8,688 bases of DNA from Escherichia coli (GTDB lineage Bacteria > Pseudomonadota > Gammaproteobacteria > Enterobacterales > Enterobacteriaceae). The position numbers and the translations under genes are program-made. The DNA lies in NCBI RefSeq assembly GCF_003334335.1, contig NZ_QOWQ01000068.1; one strand, 5' to 3'. The notes beneath the pieces were generated by a model. It was not told the origin of the DNA. It searched no databases and saw only the letters and a program-made list of their open reading frames with translations. Positions 1 through 8,182 of this stretch are shown here, in pieces; within the stretch, counting starts at the first letter, position 1, and every line of letters starts with the position of its first letter.

Positions 1-158
1 GCAAATCCGAAGGCCAGACGGGCACACTGAATCATGGCTTTATGCCGTAACATCCGTTTGGGATGCGACTGCCACGGCCCCGTAATTTCTCTGCCTTCGC
101 GGGTTTTGAATGGTTCGCGGCGGCATTCATCCATCCACTCGGTAACGCAGATCGGATG

Positions 159-283
159 ATTACCGGTTCGCTACCAGGGAAGAACGGGAAGGAAAGGTGA
201 GCACGAATCTGATTTTCAAGGAGTGTCGCCAGAGTGCCGCGATGAAGCGGGTGTTGGCATTTTATCGCGGCAATTTTCAATAG
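159..283 (+). pseudogene. ren: ren C-terminal remnant (lambda Ren-like); no usable N-terminus
   Basis: Frame 2 reads ..YRFATREEREGKVSTNLIFKECRQSAAMKRVLAFYRGNFQ*, which parallels the lambda Ren C-terminus (..YYRFATREEREGKMSTNLVFKECRQSAAMKRVL..). Upstream in the same frame there are stops at 83-85, 107-109 and 143-145, and resemblance to lambda ren starts only at about 159. Confidence 0.7.
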
Positions 284-320
284 ACTATGTACATAAAAAT
301 ATCATTTTTTTAATACATGT

Positions 321-512
321 CTAATTATTGGACGAAATTGGTTTTTGCTTTGGTTTAGTTAGCCTAGCAATCAAGCCAGAGGCAATAATGATGATCCAAG
401 CAATTTGATGCAATGCTACTCCAATATAAGAACCTTTATAGATAATAAAGGCATAGATCGCTAGAAACGAAATAAATATCCATAACGAAAGTTGATAAAT
501 TTTGGCGCGCAT
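321..512 (-). CDS. Small hairpin (2-TM) membrane protein, 63 aa, unknown function
   Basis: The ATG at 512 (MRAKIYQ..) is preferred over the TTG at 527. There are two about 20-residue hydrophobic helices separated by KGSY, and a basic C-tail (RLTKPKQKP). There is a weak GGA upstream. No family recognised; the resemblance to YiaA/YiaB two-helix proteins is only faint. Confidence 0.5.
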   Translation of the reverse strand: MRAKIYQLSLWIFISFLAIYAFIIYKGSYIGVALHQIAWIIIIASGLIARLTKPKQKPISSNN

Positions 513-768
513 ATTTAATCCAATCAATCAGAAAGACGAGTAATCATAGAGGTACTATCACCCGGGTAACTATTGCTATTATGAACGGATAGGATAGAGG
601 CTTCAATAACATATGCATCAAGTATGATGGAATATGTAGGTGAAAATGACTTGTGTCAAATTTGTGGAAATGAGTACCATGTTTCTCTGAAATTGATGTC
701 GTTAATGGCTAGTGATAGTGAACTTTTTTACTTTATAATTCCTTTGGTTATAACAATAAGGTAAATTT

Positions 769-1329
769 ATGAAGAAGATAATATTATTAGCCATGATTAT
801 TGGTTCTTTAACAGGTTGCGCTAGTGTGCCACCATTGAATTTTTCAACACCTAACGTGGGAGTTAGCCAGAAAAAAATAGATGCTGAAATTAAGTCATTA
901 ACGGTATCACTTGCTCGTCCAGATGAGCAGAAAGGGGATATCACTGCTGGTATGGAGGCTATAACTCCAATTTGGCGTGAATCTTTGCAGGAAGCACTCG
1001 ACCGAATGACTATTTTTCGTGATAGTTCACCAAATACGGTTAGCTTAAATGTTAAAGTGTTGGCTCTTGACGTTCCTGCTTTTGGTGTTTCAATGACAAC
1101 TAAAGCAATTGCAAGGTATGAAATAATCAACCGTGCGAATGGTGATATTATATATACGCAGGATATTGAGTCTACCGGTACTGTTCCAGCCAGTTACGCA
1201 TTCTACGGTATTGTTCGAGCACGCGAATCTGTTAATCGCGCGGTGCAAAACAACATAACGCAGTTCTTGCAAGCATTAGAAAGTGTTGATCTTTCTCGTC
1301 CAATGTTTCCTGTTAGGGTAGCTAAATGA
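769..1329 (+). CDS. Orphan outer-membrane lipoprotein, 186 aa
   Basis: The signal peptide carries the lipobox LTG|C17, with Ala at +2. An AAGG lies 8 nt upstream of the ATG. The stop overlaps the next start (ATGA). The mature part looks like a mixed alpha/beta domain. Its architecture loosely recalls YajG-type lipoproteins (tentative, from memory). Confidence 0.8.
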   Translation: MKKIILLAMIIGSLTGCASVPPLNFSTPNVGVSQKKIDAEIKSLTVSLARPDEQKGDITAGMEAITPIWRESLQEALDRMTIFRDSSPNTVSLNVKVLALDVPAFGVSMTTKAIARYEIINRANGDIIYTQDIESTGTVPASYAFYGIVRARESVNRAVQNNITQFLQALESVDLSRPMFPVRVAK

Positions 1330-1778
1330 AGCGATTATTCGTAATTGCTCCACTCTTAGTGTTGGTTGGATGCGCACAAAATATATCGCCAAATAGTTAT
1401 TCTGTTGGCTCTGTGGGCATGGTTAATCGAACTATCGCTGGTACAGTTATTAGTGCTAGGGGGGTTGATATCAGTGGGACTTCCGCGTTAGGCGGGACTG
1501 CTGGGGCTGCCGTGGGGGCAACCGCTGGTTCTGCGCTTGGTGGGGGAGTTCGTTCTAATATCGTTGGTGCCGTTGGTGGTGCAGTCATTGGTGGTATTGC
1601 CGGGGCAGCAATCGAATCTTCAGCAACAAAACAAACAGGCATGGAATATGTTGTCGAAACTGAGAATGGGAATTTAATGACCATTGTTCAAGGCAAAGAT
1701 CCGTTATTTACTCAAGGAAGTAAGGTCCTTGTTTTATACGGAAACCCTTCTCGCATAATAACAGACCCGCGTCACTAA
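1326..1778 (+). CDS. SlyB/Pcp-family glycine-zipper outer-membrane lipoprotein (17-kDa-antigen type), 150 aa
   Basis: Lipobox LVG|C16. A Gly/Ala zipper spans residues about 51-96 (GTSALGGTAGAAVGATAGSALGGG..GAVGGAVIGGIAGAAI). The C-terminal beta segment GMEYVVETENGNLMTIVQGK..KVLVLYGNPSRIITDPR is collinear with E. coli SlyB (..GVELEIRKDDGNTIMVVQKQ..RVVLASNGSQVTVSPR). An AGGG lies 7 nt before the ATG. Confidence 0.85.
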   Translation: MKRLFVIAPLLVLVGCAQNISPNSYSVGSVGMVNRTIAGTVISARGVDISGTSALGGTAGAAVGATAGSALGGGVRSNIVGAVGGAVIGGIAGAAIESSATKQTGMEYVVETENGNLMTIVQGKDPLFTQGSKVLVLYGNPSRIITDPRH

Positions 1779-1818
1779 CATACCTTTTGATTTTGTAAAA
1801 TCAATTCGTAATAATAAA

Positions 1819-1851
1819 GTCATCGGAGCTTGAACAACTCCGGTGACTTCT
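1819..1851 (+). terminator. Possible terminator or boundary hairpin after the lipoprotein operon
   Basis: GTCATCGGAG (1819-1828) pairs with CTCCGGTGAC (1838-1847) as a 10-bp stem with one G-U pair and a 9-nt loop, followed only by TTCT. A perfect AT-rich inverted repeat TTGATTTT/AAAATCAA lies at 1787-1804. The weak U-tract keeps confidence low. Confidence 0.3.
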
Positions 1852-1870
1852 GCGCTAAACGGGGACGTTT

Positions 1871-1972
1871 ATGCGCACATACAATCCAAACTCTCTTCTC
1901 CCTTCACAGATGCAGAAATGCACCTGCGATTTTTTGCATCCAGCGTCTGACCTCTGCGGAGGTGAAGCGTGA
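1871..1972 (+). CDS. ylcH: Small DLP12-type protein YlcH, 33 aa
   Basis: The ATG at 1871 gives [33 protein letters not shown]. Length and position (immediately upstream of ybcN and overlapping it by GTGA) match my recollection of K-12 ylcH. Confidence 0.6.
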
Positions 1973-2424
1973 ACCTACCACAAGATGGCATCAAACTGCA
2001 TCGCGGTAACTTCACCGCTATCGGCCAGCAGATCCAGCCTTATCTGGAGGACGGAAAATGCTTTCGCATGGTGCTTAAACCGTGGCGTGAGAAACGCAGT
2101 CTTTCCCAGAATGCACTCAGCCACATGTGGTACAGCGAAATCAGTGAATACCTCATCAGCAGGGGGAAATCGTTCGCTACCGCAGCATGGGTAAAAGATG
2201 CTCTCAAACACACATACCTCGGTTATGAAACCAAGGACCTGGTTGATGTCGTAACCGGCGAAATCACTACTATCCAGTCGTTACGCCATACCTCCGATCT
2301 TGATACCGGAGAGATGTATATCTTCCTGTGTAAGGTTGAAGCCTGGGCGGTGAATATTGGCTGCCACCTGACTATTCCGCAGAGCTGCGAGTTCCAGCAG
2401 CTCCGCGACAAACAGGAGGCGTAA
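1969..2424 (+). CDS. ybcN: NinB/Orf-family recombination protein (DLP12 YbcN), 151 aa
   Basis: GTG start at 1969. The sequence [43 protein letters not shown].. matches remembered YbcN/NinB. It sits at the head of the nin operon. Confidence 0.9.
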
Positions 2425-2594
2425 TGGCTACACCGCTTATTCGTGTCATGAACGGACACATCTACAGAGTACCAAATCGTCGTAAGCGTAAACCGGAGCT
2501 GAAGCCTTCCGAAATACCAACACTGCTCGGATATACCGCCAGCCTGGTTGATAAAAAATGGTTGCGACTGGCAGCAAGGAGGAGTCATGGCTGA
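2424..2594 (+). CDS. ninE: NinE, 56 aa
   Basis: This ORF is below the track cutoff. TAATG overlap with ybcN. The translation is [56 protein letters not shown], which matches remembered NinE. Confidence 0.85.
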   Translation: MATPLIRVMNGHIYRVPNRRKRKPELKPSEIPTLLGYTASLVDKKWLRLAARRSHG

Positions 2595-2877
2595 TTTGAG
2601 AAAAGCAGCGCGTGGTCGGGAATGCCAGGTAAGAATCCCTGGCGTATGTAATGGCAACCCTGAAACGTCTGTACTGGCACATATCCGGCTGACTGGATTG
2701 TGCGGCACCGGTACGAAACCGCCAGACCTGATTGCCACCATTGCATGTTCTGCCTGCCACGACGAAATCGACCGCCGCACACATTTTGTCGATGCTGCAT
2801 ATGCAAAAGAATGCGCGCTGGAAGGTATGGCGAGAACACAGGTTATCTGGCTGAAAGAGGGGGTTATTAAGGCGTGA
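2587..2877 (+). CDS. ybcO: DUF1364-family putative Zn-dependent nuclease (DLP12 YbcO), 96 aa
   Basis: The ATG at 2587 ([23 protein letters not shown]..) gives the 96-aa K-12 length. It has CxxxxxxC ... CxxC-H cysteine/histidine motifs. It overlaps the ninE stop by 8 nt. Confidence 0.9.
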
Positions 2878-3236
2878 ATACCTACAGCATCACATTACCC
2901 TGGCCTCCGAGCAATAATCGCTATTACCGCCATAATCGCGGGCGCACACACATCAGCGCAGAAGGGCAGGCATACCGCGATAACGTCACCCGAATCATTA
3001 AAAACGCAATGCTGGATATCGGCCTGGCTATGCCAGTGAAAATCCGTATTGAGTGCCACATGCCGGATCGCCGTCGCCGTGACCTGGATAATCTGCAAAA
3101 AGCCGCTTTTGACGCACTCACCAAAGCAGGTTTCTGGCTGGATGATGCTCAGGTCGTTGATTACCGCGTTGTGAAGATGCCTGTTACCAAAGGTGGGAGG
3201 CTGGAACTGACCATCACCGAAATGGGGAATGAATGA
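2874..3236 (+). CDS. rusA: RusA Holliday-junction resolvase, 120 aa
   Basis: GTG start overlapping the ybcO stop (GTGA). The sequence [49 protein letters not shown].. matches remembered RusA, including the catalytic acidic cluster. Confidence 0.95.
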
Positions 3237-4030: not shown

Positions 4031-5113
4031 TTAGAACTGGTAAACCATACCTACAGCAACGATATCATCGGTAGCAACGCCAGATGCTTTCGTGAAATCG
4101 CTCTTATCAATCAGGTTGATTTTGTAATCAACAAAAGTGGACATATTTTTGTTGAAGTAATAGGTTGCACCTACATCAATATATTCAACCAGGTCCTGAT
4201 CACCCCACGCACCCAAGTCTTTTCCTTTAGATTGCAGGTAAGCAACGGACGGACGCAGACCGAAGTCGAACTGATATTGTGCAACTACTTCGAAGTTTTG
4301 TGCTTTGTTGGCAATATGGTTATTACCAAAAACAGTCATGTTCTGGGTTTCAGAATAGGTGGTAGCCAGATAGATGTTGTTCGCATCATATTTCAGACCA
4401 GCTGCCCATACTTCAGCATTTTGACCAGATGCATTCAGGCTGTTGTTACCGTAGATAACCTGATTATTAGTGCGGTCAGATTTAGCATAGGTTGCACCTA
4501 CACCGAATCCTTCATACTCATAAGTAGTGGAGAAACCGAAACCATCACCATTAGCTTCAGTTACGTCAGTGCGGTCATTTTTACCCTGATACTGAGCAGC
4601 AAAGTTCAGACCATCAACCAGACCAAAGAAGTCATTGTTACGATAAGTTGCAACACCTGTGGTGCGACCAGTCATGAATACATCTGTTTGGGTCCAGGTA
4701 TCGCCACCGAATTCTGGCAGAACGTCGGTCCATGCACCAATATCGTATGCTACACCGTAGTTACGGCCATAATCGATGGAGCCGTAGTCACCGAATTTCA
4801 GGCCAGCGAAGGCAAGACGGGTTTTATCTTTGGAGGAACCTTGAGATTCAGCGCGGTTGCCTTTGAATTCATATTCCCACTGACCGAAACCAGTCAGTTG
4901 ATCGTTGATTTGGGTTTCACCTTTGAAGCCAAGACGGGCATAAGTAGTATCACCATCATCTGCATCATTAGAGGAGAAGTAGTGCTTAGCATTAACTTTC
5001 CCGTACAGATCCAGCTTGTTACTGTCTTTATTATAAATTTCAGCTGCCTGAGCAGACATCGCCATCAGTACTGATGCAGCTACAGCAGAAATTGCCACTG
5101 TTAATTTTTTCAT
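4031..5113 (-). CDS. nmpC: OmpC/PhoE-family general porin NmpC (Lc-type), intact, 360 aa precursor
   Basis: The start at 5113 ([23 protein letters not shown]|AEIYNK..) has a signal peptide and an AAGGG SD. The sequence has porin hallmarks (..LDLYGKV.., ..GFGQWEYEF.., C-terminal ..VGMVYQF). The 20 extra N-terminal residues in the track ORF lack a signal-peptide context. Confidence 0.95.
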
Positions 5114-5540
5114 CGTGAGCCCTTTTTTTGAACTATTATTAAAAAATGATGTCACTGCGCGATAAATATTCATCTAATCAATGTGATTATTTCAAGATGT
5201 AAGTTTTGGTTTCTCATTTGATTTGTGAAGTAGATCTCTATTTTTATCTGAACTTTTTCTATCGAATCCTATTCATGGCTCTTGGCTGAATAAAAATAAA
5301 TCTATTAGCCAATTTATATTAATGGCTGTTATTTATAAGTGCTCTATAATTTGAAGATTCAATTTAAACCAGCTAAAAATAACGCTGGAAATTATTTGTT
5401 GGTTATTTGTTGAGATTTGCTTATGTATTTGTAGTGGTGTTTTCAATACTCGGTAGCATTCTCGCAAATATCATTTAGTGGTTTACGTACGTAAAAAATT
5501 GGTTATGCTGTTAAGAGTGGTTACTTCGTCACACAGCTTA

Positions 5541-5572
5541 AACCCGCCGTCGAGCGGGTTTTTCCATTTTTT
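5541..5572 (+). terminator. Rho-independent terminator upstream of the lysis genes (tR'-like, expected target of Q)
   Basis: An AACCCGC/GCGGGTT stem (5541-5547 / 5554-5560) is followed by TTTCCATTTTTT. No plus-strand gene precedes it. This fits the short-leader-plus-terminator arrangement known from lambda pR'-tR'. Confidence 0.55.
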
Positions 5573-5700
5573 GAGTCTCGATATTAGCTGATAACCCAAT
5601 ACCTGAGTTATTCACTGACTCCGAGTCTGTTACGTTTCTGCTTTTTTGCGATACGTTGTATTCCCTCAATTTACACCCGCTTTGTCTGCGAGGTGGGGTT

Positions 5701-7486: not shown

Positions 7487-7897
7487 TTAGCGTGGAAAGA
7501 TTTGTGTAGTGTTCTGAATGCTCTCAGTAAATAGTAATGAATTATCAAAGGTATAGTAATATCTTTTATGTTCATGGATATTTGTAACCCATCGGAAAAC
7601 TCCTGCTTTAGCAAGATTTTCCCTGTATTGCTGAAATGTGATTTCTCTTGATTTCAACCTATCATAGGACGTTTCTATAAGATGCGTGTTTCTTGAGAAT
7701 TTAACATTTACAACCTTTTTAAGTCCTTTTATTAACACGGTGTTATCGTTTTCTAACACGATGTGAATATTATCTGTGGCTAGATAGTAAATATAATGTG
7801 AGACGTTGTGACGTTTTAGTTCAGAATAAAACAATTCACAGTTTAAATCTTTTCGCACTTGATCGAATATTTCTTTAAAAATGGCAACCTGAGCCAT
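7487..7897 (-). CDS. ybcV: DUF1398-family protein YbcV, 136 aa (the longer 177-aa reading to 8020 is less likely)
   Basis: The ATG at 7897 ([11 protein letters not shown]..) has GGAAGG 8 nt upstream. The track's start at 8020 is a GTG with no SD. The sequence matches remembered YbcV and the lambda right-end ORF. Confidence 0.8.
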
Positions 7898-8182
7898 TGG
7901 TAAAACCTTCCATGTGATACGAGGGCGCGTAGTTTGCATTATCGTTTTTATCGTTTCAATCTGGTCTGACCTCTTTGTGTTTTGTTGATGATTTATGTCA
8001 AATATTAGGAATGTTTTCACTTAATAGTATTGGTTGCGTAACAAAGTGCGGTCCTGCTGGCATTCTGGAGGGAAATACAACCGACAGATGTATGTAAGGC
8101 CAACGTGCTCAAATCTTCATACAGAAAGATTTGAAGTAATATTTTAACCGCTAGATGAAGAGCAAGCGCATGGAGCGACAAA

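Follow-up and report, generated by a model that had tools for sequence, protein, structure and literature searches.

A coupled pair of predicted outer-membrane lipoproteins, repeatedly captured by temperate phages, in a cassette slot of Escherichia coli lambdoid prophages

The window analysed in this study, an 8.7-kb stretch of Escherichia coli DNA (8,688 nucleotides (nt), contig NZ_QOWQ01000068.1), holds a degraded lambdoid prophage with nin, Q, porin, lysis and bor genes of the DLP12/phage-82 type. Between the remnant of its ren gene and ylcH lies an AT-rich cargo island, which is a composite of a small membrane-protein gene, orf63, and a translationally coupled pair of lipoprotein genes. 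The pair encodes a predicted lipoprotein of 186 amino acids (aa) and a SlyB-like lipoprotein of 150 aa, and it is an operon of bacterial chromosomal origin that phages have repeatedly captured. We consider it fairly likely that the island is a composite moron whose two lipoproteins form an outer-membrane complex benefiting the lysogen, through envelope robustness, phage exclusion or both. All three open reading frames (ORFs) are of envelope type, as a preliminary description of this DNA had predicted: two have lipoboxes and one has two hydrophobic helices. The features of the island and its right-hand border are:

~259–1786, no strand assigned: cargo island as redefined here from junction alignments, that is, all that varies between alternative slot contents
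321–512, minus strand: orf63, 63 aa from its ATG, with two predicted membrane helices (hydrophobic windows)
712–739, plus strand: sigma-70 promoter-like site GTGATA-16-TATAAT, 30 nt upstream of the 186-aa gene (consensus scan, 10/12)
769–1329, plus strand: 186-aa predicted outer-membrane lipoprotein; lipobox LTGC, Cys17, Ala at +2, C-terminal ...RPMFP tail
1326–1778, plus strand: 150-aa predicted outer-membrane lipoprotein of the SlyB family with glycine zipper; lipobox LVGC, Cys16, Ala at +2
1787–1870, plus strand: conserved right-hand junction element, common to all 21 slot classes

Judged by its sequence, the 150-aa protein is a clear homologue or paralogue of SlyB. Its N-terminus reads MKRLFVIAPLLVLVGC followed by AQ, Cys16 is invariant in 24 homologues, and position +2 bears no inner-membrane retention residue. 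A phmmer search against the PDB aligned it over its full length with SlyB (7ojf_A, E 1.3e-14, residues 2–149 against 3–155). The sole Foldseek match of its model at E ≤ 0.001 was again 7ojf_A, the SlyB13-BamA complex (E 2e-7, probability 1.00, template modelling (TM) score 0.57–0.61). The viral structure library returned only weak matches of low TM score (CsgG-like, ERF/Rad52), which are uninformative. Many close homologues carry PF13488 or PF05433, and the Gly/Ala pattern of the zipper is conserved. SlyB itself is a PhoP-regulated outer-membrane lipoprotein of E. coli and Salmonella whose structure (PDB 7OJF/7OJG) and role are published; it encases OmpF/C, LamB-class porins and BamA, and the family of SlyB and YfgH lends stability to the outer membrane when it is stressed by EDTA/SDS. 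Both proteins share, in the same order, a lipobox, a short strand region, a glycine-zipper helical hairpin and a C-terminal beta domain. However, the 150-aa protein is phage-encoded and only about 27–33% identical to SlyB, and canonical slyB lacks the dedicated upstream 186-aa lipoprotein gene and the stop/start overlap, whereas the 150-aa gene always has both. Ring formation and clients are known for SlyB, to which the 150-aa protein is likened from its sequence and a monomer model. The 150-aa protein corresponds to phrog_13877, and each of the two lipoproteins has its own PHROG family without assigned function. The preliminary description had credited the slot content with no described function. 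This does not hold for the 150-aa protein, given its published homologue, but it stands for the pair, which is undescribed in the searchable literature.

The 186-aa protein is modelled as an alpha/beta fold of the LptE/PqiC/PelC type, in which a four-stranded sheet is packed by two helices on a lipid anchor. More than 500 homologues with 52–87% identity were found in Klebsiella, Serratia, Edaphovirga, Xanthomonas, Stenotrophomonas, Luteimonas, Bordetella, Comamonas, Massilia, Micavibrio and other genera. Apart from the lipid-attachment motif, no Pfam family matched any of 25 members at E ≤ 1. The protein belongs to no NCBIfam family and does not match the YajG-family model (PF03923); the NCBIfam matches IglE, DapF and YiaD scored far below their own cutoffs and were disregarded. 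Any link to E. coli YajG would be remote: an hhalign comparison of the family with it gave a probability of 82.8% and E 9e-6 over 121 columns, a score inflated by the signal peptide in the alignment. Compared with YajG and the class of LptE, PelC, PqiC (DUF330) and the CsgG N-domain, the 186-aa protein is only 7–15% identical to any solved structure, and its family differs in having its own C-terminal PMFP tail tied to the SlyB-like partner. In databases it is named either YajG family lipoprotein, as by PGAP, or UDP-N-acetylglucosamine acyltransferase. The latter enzyme is a cytoplasmic left-handed beta-helix with hexapeptide repeats. The assignment is refuted by the lipoprotein signal, the alpha/beta fold and the lack of a hexapeptide-repeat Pfam match; the name is a propagated annotation error, and it is widespread among the homologues (e.g. 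P0001, P0003, P0021) in NCBI and UniRef records and in the annotation of Escherichia phage PhiR30_1.

The two lipoprotein genes overlap by 4 nt in an ATGA stop/start at 1326–1329. The island had been described as three unrelated genes, which needs correction: two form a conserved operon, and the third (321–512, minus strand) is a separate module. Across Gamma-, Beta- and Alphaproteobacteria, the SlyB-like gene lies 0–123 nt downstream of the 186-aa gene in 50 of 55 species-level loci. The 186-aa family ends in a near-invariant C-terminal (K/R)P(M/L)F(P/S). This tail is found in 61 of the 62 homologues with a SlyB-like partner (the exception reads RPIFS) and in none of the nine without (Fisher p 1.3e-10, not tree-corrected). 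Of all the observations made, this co-variation speaks most strongly for a direct functional link between the two proteins, and probably a physical one. Both genes are under purifying selection, with a nonsynonymous proportion (pN) of 0.10–0.19 against a synonymous proportion (pS) of 0.72–0.87 at saturated synonymous sites. The site at 712–739 is a candidate for the operon's own promoter. A hairpin at 1713–1731 was rejected as a terminator, because it is coding (inside the SlyB-like gene). Morons, prophage hotspots and SlyB are all known, but a dedicated pair of a SlyB-like and an LptE-fold lipoprotein was not found in the searchable literature, nor was anything on the pair's protein accessions or PHROG ids.

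The distribution of the pair points to bacterial chromosomes as its source. The closest locus outside E. coli is in Klebsiella oxytoca; its DNA is 71% identical, over a stretch of homology that runs from precisely the start codon at 769 to about 1759. In Stenotrophomonas the pair stands between a FecIR/TonB-dependent receptor cluster and ispH-lspA-ileS-ribF, and ten species share a flank. One such locus, in Stenotrophomonas sp. MYb238 (L188:2929-8815), has the pair right after the FecI/FecR/TonB-dependent receptor cluster and beside lspA, the gene for lipoprotein signal peptidase, a context that hints at a tie to a specific outer-membrane receptor or to lipoprotein processing. In Xanthomonas nasturtii the pair adjoins pgaABCD, and its neighbours in Bordetella and K. 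oxytoca are toxin-antitoxin, transposase, umuDC and stress genes. Only 4 of the 55 loci share neighbours with the phage contexts, which makes the pair above all an envelope operon of bacteria; on the same count, the idea was rejected that the chromosomal loci are mostly hidden prophages of these types.

Temperate phages carry the pair at no fewer than three different genome positions. One is the ren/nin slot of E. coli phages. Another lies between the tape-measure and gpM-like minor tail genes of a lambda-like tail operon (L167:4665-9397, L168, L169). The third, in Xanthomonadaceae-type contigs (L172), is 43 nt downstream of a cI-type repressor gene (helix-turn-helix and S24) and co-directional with it; in lambda, the position downstream of the repressor is held by rexAB. 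A tail operon is an unusual place for accessory cargo, and a Serratia marcescens locus (L062) also has a tape-measure fragment after the pair. Neither the tail/partner co-variation nor the repeated capture by phages was found in the searchable literature.

The variability of the slot was catalogued with ybcN, the gene following ylcH, as anchor. Eighty viral contigs encoding YbcN at ≥95% identity were collected, 64 of them could be anchored on Ren or P, and the intervening DNA was clustered; the 80 are the best of at least 599 matches, and the class frequencies therefore do not amount to a census. The 64 anchored contigs hold at least 21 distinct contents, all of which have a GC content of 0.33–0.43 and end at the same junction element. 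This bears out the earlier suggestion of a cassette-exchange hotspot. The lipoprotein-pair island occupies the slot in 11 contigs and in one stacked variant. Other contents are an inverse autotransporter with an alpha/beta hydrolase (13 contigs), PRTase-CE with NADAR (7 contigs and one degraded copy), emrE-ylcJ-ybcK with a hydrolase (6 contigs) and a VasI-like secreted protein (5 contigs). Also represented are Bro/P22-type antirepressors, a Pua-like metallophosphatase with a HAD hydrolase (PADLOC 'Hydrolase', 4.5e-57), a HEC-07-like protein, an HD protein with PD-Lambda-1 (5e-198), Kiwa (KwaB, 7e-149), a NACHT protein, a 102-aa lipoprotein and several ORF sets without a family. The known defence genes that the preliminary description had proposed to look for are thus present: KwaB, PD-Lambda-1, NACHT, PRTase-CE with NADAR, and the Pua-like metallophosphatase with its HAD partner. 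Three of the contents are visible directly in deposited phage genomes. The K-12 slot content given in the preliminary description was likewise correct, DLP12 carrying renD-emrE-ylcJ-ybcK-ybcL-ybcM-ylcH-ybcN in this region.

The island thus lies between conserved backbone genes, is missing from close relatives and differs in composition from its flanks, as is found for morons, and the slot shows many gene sets between the same flanks, known defence systems among them, as is found for prophage defence hotspots. In this it resembles the lambdoid morons and hotspots already described (lambda rexAB, bor and lom; P2/P4; DLP12 emrE-ybcKLM), being patchy among close relatives and sharing its slot with bona fide defence systems. 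It differs from them in that the cargo is a pair of envelope lipoproteins and not a recognised defence system. No description of a ren/ninB moron slot was found in the searchable literature, and neither was a mapped ren/ylcH slot with breakpoints; the slot is now mapped with exact breakpoints. Because it holds Kiwa, PD-Lambda-1, NACHT and uncharacterised sets, it is a practical place to seek new lysogen-protecting functions. Cassette ORFs without a Pfam match were noted at L143:3943-5582 (221 and 319 aa), L081:6812-7489 (minus strand, 225 aa), L090:7300-7806 (168 aa), L138:7158-7790 (210 aa), L119:7147-7455 (the 102-aa lipoprotein) and L086:3135-3749 (minus strand, a 204-aa membrane protein). 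The last of these stands beside KwaB and is probably KwaA; as a group, these ORFs are candidates for uncharacterised lysogen-protecting functions.

For the pair itself, the following mode of action is proposed. By homology, the SlyB-like protein would insert a glycine-zipper helical hairpin into the outer membrane and assemble side by side into rings around lipid patches or outer-membrane proteins. The predicted fold of the 186-aa protein is that of lipoproteins such as LptE, PelC, PqiC, the CsgG N-domain and the TraT ring domain; folds of this type typically dock on or ring outer-membrane machines, and a two-component complex is therefore proposed. The two lipoproteins would act as one outer-membrane complex, with the PMFP tail as the likely contact, and this complex, expressed from the prophage, would remodel or reinforce the outer membrane of the lysogen. 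The expected gain would be a sturdier envelope and/or less access of superinfecting phages to outer-membrane receptors. Robustness of the envelope and exclusion by shielding of receptors or entry routes appear about equally plausible, and they are not mutually exclusive. Orf63 would be an independent phage-borne module, and the cassettes would swap by homologous recombination through the conserved flanks. The analysis establishes the anatomy of the island, the homologies, the pairing and its selection, the repeated capture by phages and the hotspot; that the two proteins form a complex, that they are expressed in lysogens and what phenotype results are inferred.

Several observations weigh against this proposal. 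The case for a complex is drawn from gene linkage and the tail/partner correlation, and besides the missing tree correction the nine unpaired homologues in that test come from only about six lineages. Having no SlyB-like neighbour, these nine also indicate that the 186-aa protein can work alone or with another partner. The monomer model of the SlyB-like protein is of low confidence (predicted local distance difference test, pLDDT, 63), and its PF05433 glycine-zipper score of 21.1 bits (E 3e-4) falls below the curated cutoff of 24.2. The site at 712–739 is a consensus match only, such sites being no more frequent than in shuffles (6 against 4.8 ± 2.3), and a promoter/terminator scan found no classical terminator after the lipoprotein operon. 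None of the three island proteins matched a PADLOC model at E ≤ 1. The slot also carries non-defence cargo such as the inverse autotransporter and EmrE, so position alone does not fix the phenotype.

Among the alternatives, a role in envelope stress or host interaction only is a credible one, although we rate it below even. The pair would then supplement host SlyB and raise tolerance to bile, cationic peptides, chelators and serum, like Bor/Iss, and would have no anti-phage role. The stabilising effect of the SlyB/YfgH family under EDTA/SDS stress agrees with this, a general envelope role would suit the stable chromosomal operon of Stenotrophomonas, which has lspA and a TonB-dependent receptor as neighbours, and the same prophage type carries bor/iss and a porin gene. 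Yet E. coli already has slyB, so that the gain from a paralogue of about 30% identity is not obvious, and a generic housekeeping role leaves unexplained why phages acquired the pair at lysogeny-expressed or hotspot positions. A further alternative is a dedicated anti-phage barrier, in which SlyB-like rings and their partner would enclose or cap receptor or entry proteins of the outer membrane and so block adsorption or DNA entry, much as FhuA is blocked by T5 Llp or phi80 Cor and conjugative mating by TraT. Kiwa, PD-Lambda-1, NACHT, PRTase-CE with NADAR and others occupy the same slot, unrelated temperate phages have captured the pair repeatedly, and in L172 it directly follows the repressor gene as rexAB do in lambda. 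Further, SlyB is known to encase OmpF/C, LamB-class porins and BamA, and TraT is a precedent for a chromosomal lipoprotein independently co-opted by plasmids for exclusion (PMC11733297). Nevertheless, we regard superinfection exclusion as the dedicated function as somewhat doubtful: besides the negative PADLOC result, no annotated exclusion protein of phages, Llp and Cor included, matched in sequence or convincingly in structure, most occurrences are chromosomal and lie in housekeeping or exopolysaccharide neighbourhoods and not in defence islands, and adhesin, efflux and other non-defence cargo also uses the slot. A more specific version, which we consider unlikely, makes the hetero-oligomeric ring a phage-carried anti-phage shield, with a SlyB-type nanodomain and a capping partner walling off receptor or entry proteins. 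Such a 'split TraT-like' system would have been recruited at least three times from an envelope-maintenance operon.

A function in the lytic cycle, either keeping progeny off the debris of lysed cells, as proposed for T5 Llp, or modulating the disruption of the outer membrane at lysis, seems improbable. The E. coli pair does lie in the early-right operon upstream of nin and Q, and would thus be transcribed during lytic growth, and the pair of L167-169 is inside a late tail operon. But it is missing from most close relatives with the same backbone, and so is dispensable; it is kept intact in defective prophages incapable of lytic growth, such as that of this window; and in other bacteria it is mainly chromosomal. 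We give very little credence to the idea that the pair serves no function in E. coli at present and is passenger DNA brought along by recombination at a promiscuous slot. With ≥99% identity among the E. coli copies, conservation inside the species is hardly informative, and the prophage in the window is decaying. Against this, 280 genomes and one complete phage genome on deposit hold both genes intact, purifying selection between lineages is strong, the translational coupling is kept, and phages have captured the pair independently at three or more positions.

The proposed outer-membrane complex can be compared with known lipoproteins. TraT is a ring-forming lipoprotein of chromosomal origin that plasmids have co-opted independently (PMC11733297). 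This surface-exclusion lipoprotein of IncF plasmids forms a decameric ring with a helical membrane barrel from one polypeptide, whereas two genes are present here; there is no sequence similarity, and the Foldseek matches of the SlyB-like model to it are not significant (E 0.3–0.5). T5 Llp and the Cor protein of phi80/N15 block FhuA and, like the pair, are small phage-encoded outer-membrane lipoproteins; published work has them acting from the inner leaflet on an outer-membrane protein. They show no detectable sequence or fold relation to the pair, and each consists of one small protein directed at a single receptor. That SlyB-type glycine-zipper lipoproteins build protective nanodomains in the outer membrane is a recent insight. 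In the present case, a divergent SlyB is accompanied by a dedicated, co-evolving partner; the two occur widely across Proteobacteria, and unrelated temperate phages have acquired them repeatedly. The pair offers a simple, testable two-gene system for asking whether nanodomains can change what passes or binds the cell surface, phages included.

The limits of the island were set by comparing slot classes. The backbone genes that enclose it, together with the remnant beyond ren, are:

1–161, minus strand: recT remnant, left flank, outside the island (from the Prokaryotic Genome Annotation Pipeline (PGAP) annotation of the 100%-identical NZ_CP104384)
161–283, plus strand: ren remnant, C-terminal ~40 codons, stop codon at 281–283 (PGAP 'protein ren, missing N-terminus'; tblastn to full Ren)
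1871–1972, plus strand: ylcH-like orf33, backbone
1969–2424, plus strand: ybcN, the NinB-position gene of the DLP12/phage 82 type, backbone (NCBIfam PRK09741, 2.1e-83)

The PGAP coordinates of ren, ylcH and ybcN confirm a cargo segment between the ren remnant and ylcH, but the edges first given for it, 284 and 1870, are off by about 25 nt and about 85 nt, homology breaking near 259 on the left and resuming at 1787 on the right. On the left, the slot classes diverge after ...GCGGGTGTTGGC, within the last ~8 codons of ren. These codons and the stop (~259–283) are cassette-specific; since the similarity between classes ends inside the 3' end of ren, each cassette brings its own ren tail and stop codon. 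On the right, all 21 classes converge on an element of about 85 nt that starts with TTGATT at 1787, and the sequence upstream of it is class-specific. The left break and the right convergence together place the island at ~259–1786. At ≥99% identity, it is found in 280 of 5,426 complete E. coli genomes, each time between the same flanks, and is therefore not conserved backbone, in agreement with the preliminary description; the junction element (1787–1870), in contrast, is matched in 2,796 of the same genomes. A search of 72,556 plasmids, distant mode included, found no match to the island.

A sharp drop in GC had also been described for the slot. The GC content of 284–1870 is indeed lower than that of the nin genes at 1871–3236 (39.8% against 51.5%), but the 25–35% first stated holds only for 284–768 (32%, lowest 200-nt window 28.5%) and is overstated for two thirds of the segment. 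The 186-aa gene has 40.5% GC and the SlyB-like gene 47.2%, and the glycine-rich stretch goes up to 56%. The foreign composition is clearer at third codon positions, where GC is 0.30–0.34 in the island against 0.49–0.61 in ninB/ybcO/rusA.

The junction element contains a promoter-like motif, TTGATT-17-AATAAT (scan match 1787–1815), a TTGATT...AATCAA palindrome and a 12-bp hairpin (~1817–1849), and a further hairpin covers the ribosome-binding region of ylcH. Its RNA folds into three hairpins (−31.2 kcal/mol, z −4.9), and in record X92588.1 (phage 82) this element, which precedes orf33, carries annotations for a putative −35 and −10 and for a 'possible regulator-binding site'. One IMG/VR contig, 2529293246_000003, has two cassettes stacked in one slot (L093:4379-7902), in the order: the present island, a partial copy of ylcH and the junction, a Bro-type antirepressor with a 169-aa ORF, and the normal ylcH-ybcN. 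Recombination at the junction element would be expected to yield this arrangement. L138, L143 and L117, too, have an additional partial copy of ylcH, and the stacked cassettes and extra copies suggest that the junction element is itself a recombination site. Relaxed homologous recombination between lambdoid phages and DLP12, nin region included, has been demonstrated experimentally (PMC3945230). A scan of the island edges for direct and inverted repeats found only short families and one 12-nt inverted repeat, TGCCGCGATGAA / TTTATCGCGGCA (235–246 / 261–272), which spans the left break with 92% complementarity and a 14-nt spacing and may be due to chance.

Orf63 is antisense to the early-right operon. 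It is omitted by PGAP but was called by the authors of the PhiR30_1 genome, and calls of it exist in 29 E. coli cluster members. Searched exhaustively with HMMER, 1.84 billion representatives contained three remote homologues, all equal to it in length and sharing a conserved motif. One belongs to a different lambdoid prophage, where it follows the O/P replication genes and immediately precedes nin, again antisense and without the lipoprotein pair. For orf63, a pN of 0.32 against a pS of 0.72 fits a coding sequence, and none of the 55 bacterial loci of the pair includes it. Given these homologues, the pN/pS values and the absence from the pair loci, orf63 is treated as a real but separate phage gene. 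Membership in the lipoprotein module is ruled out by its absence from 55/55 loci, by the homologue standing alone in the other prophage and by the Klebsiella DNA homology, which starts exactly at 769.

The recT remnant abuts the ren remnant at 161, so that a single deletion took everything from the recombination genes to most of ren. With it the immunity and replication genes were lost, and this prophage is therefore defective. Several complete genomes match the first 2.5 kb of the window at 100% identity, and at least 19 span the whole 1–2500 query, including the recT-ren junction. In strain JNQH498 the prophage adjoins ybhC and not the argU site of DLP12. Elsewhere, the same cargo follows a ren gene of full length in a prophage that appears to be intact, and it is also part of the complete PhiR30_1 genome on deposit, a phage grown on E. 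coli C. An Rfam scan of the window gave no family at E ≤ 0.1. The nmpC/ompD-type porin gene (4031–5173, minus strand), an uninterrupted ORF in the window, has 43% GC, and both the porin-essD spacer (5174–5655) and ybcV (7487–8020, minus strand) have 33%. As these are also low in GC, the ren/ylcH island is not the sole compositionally foreign part of the window.

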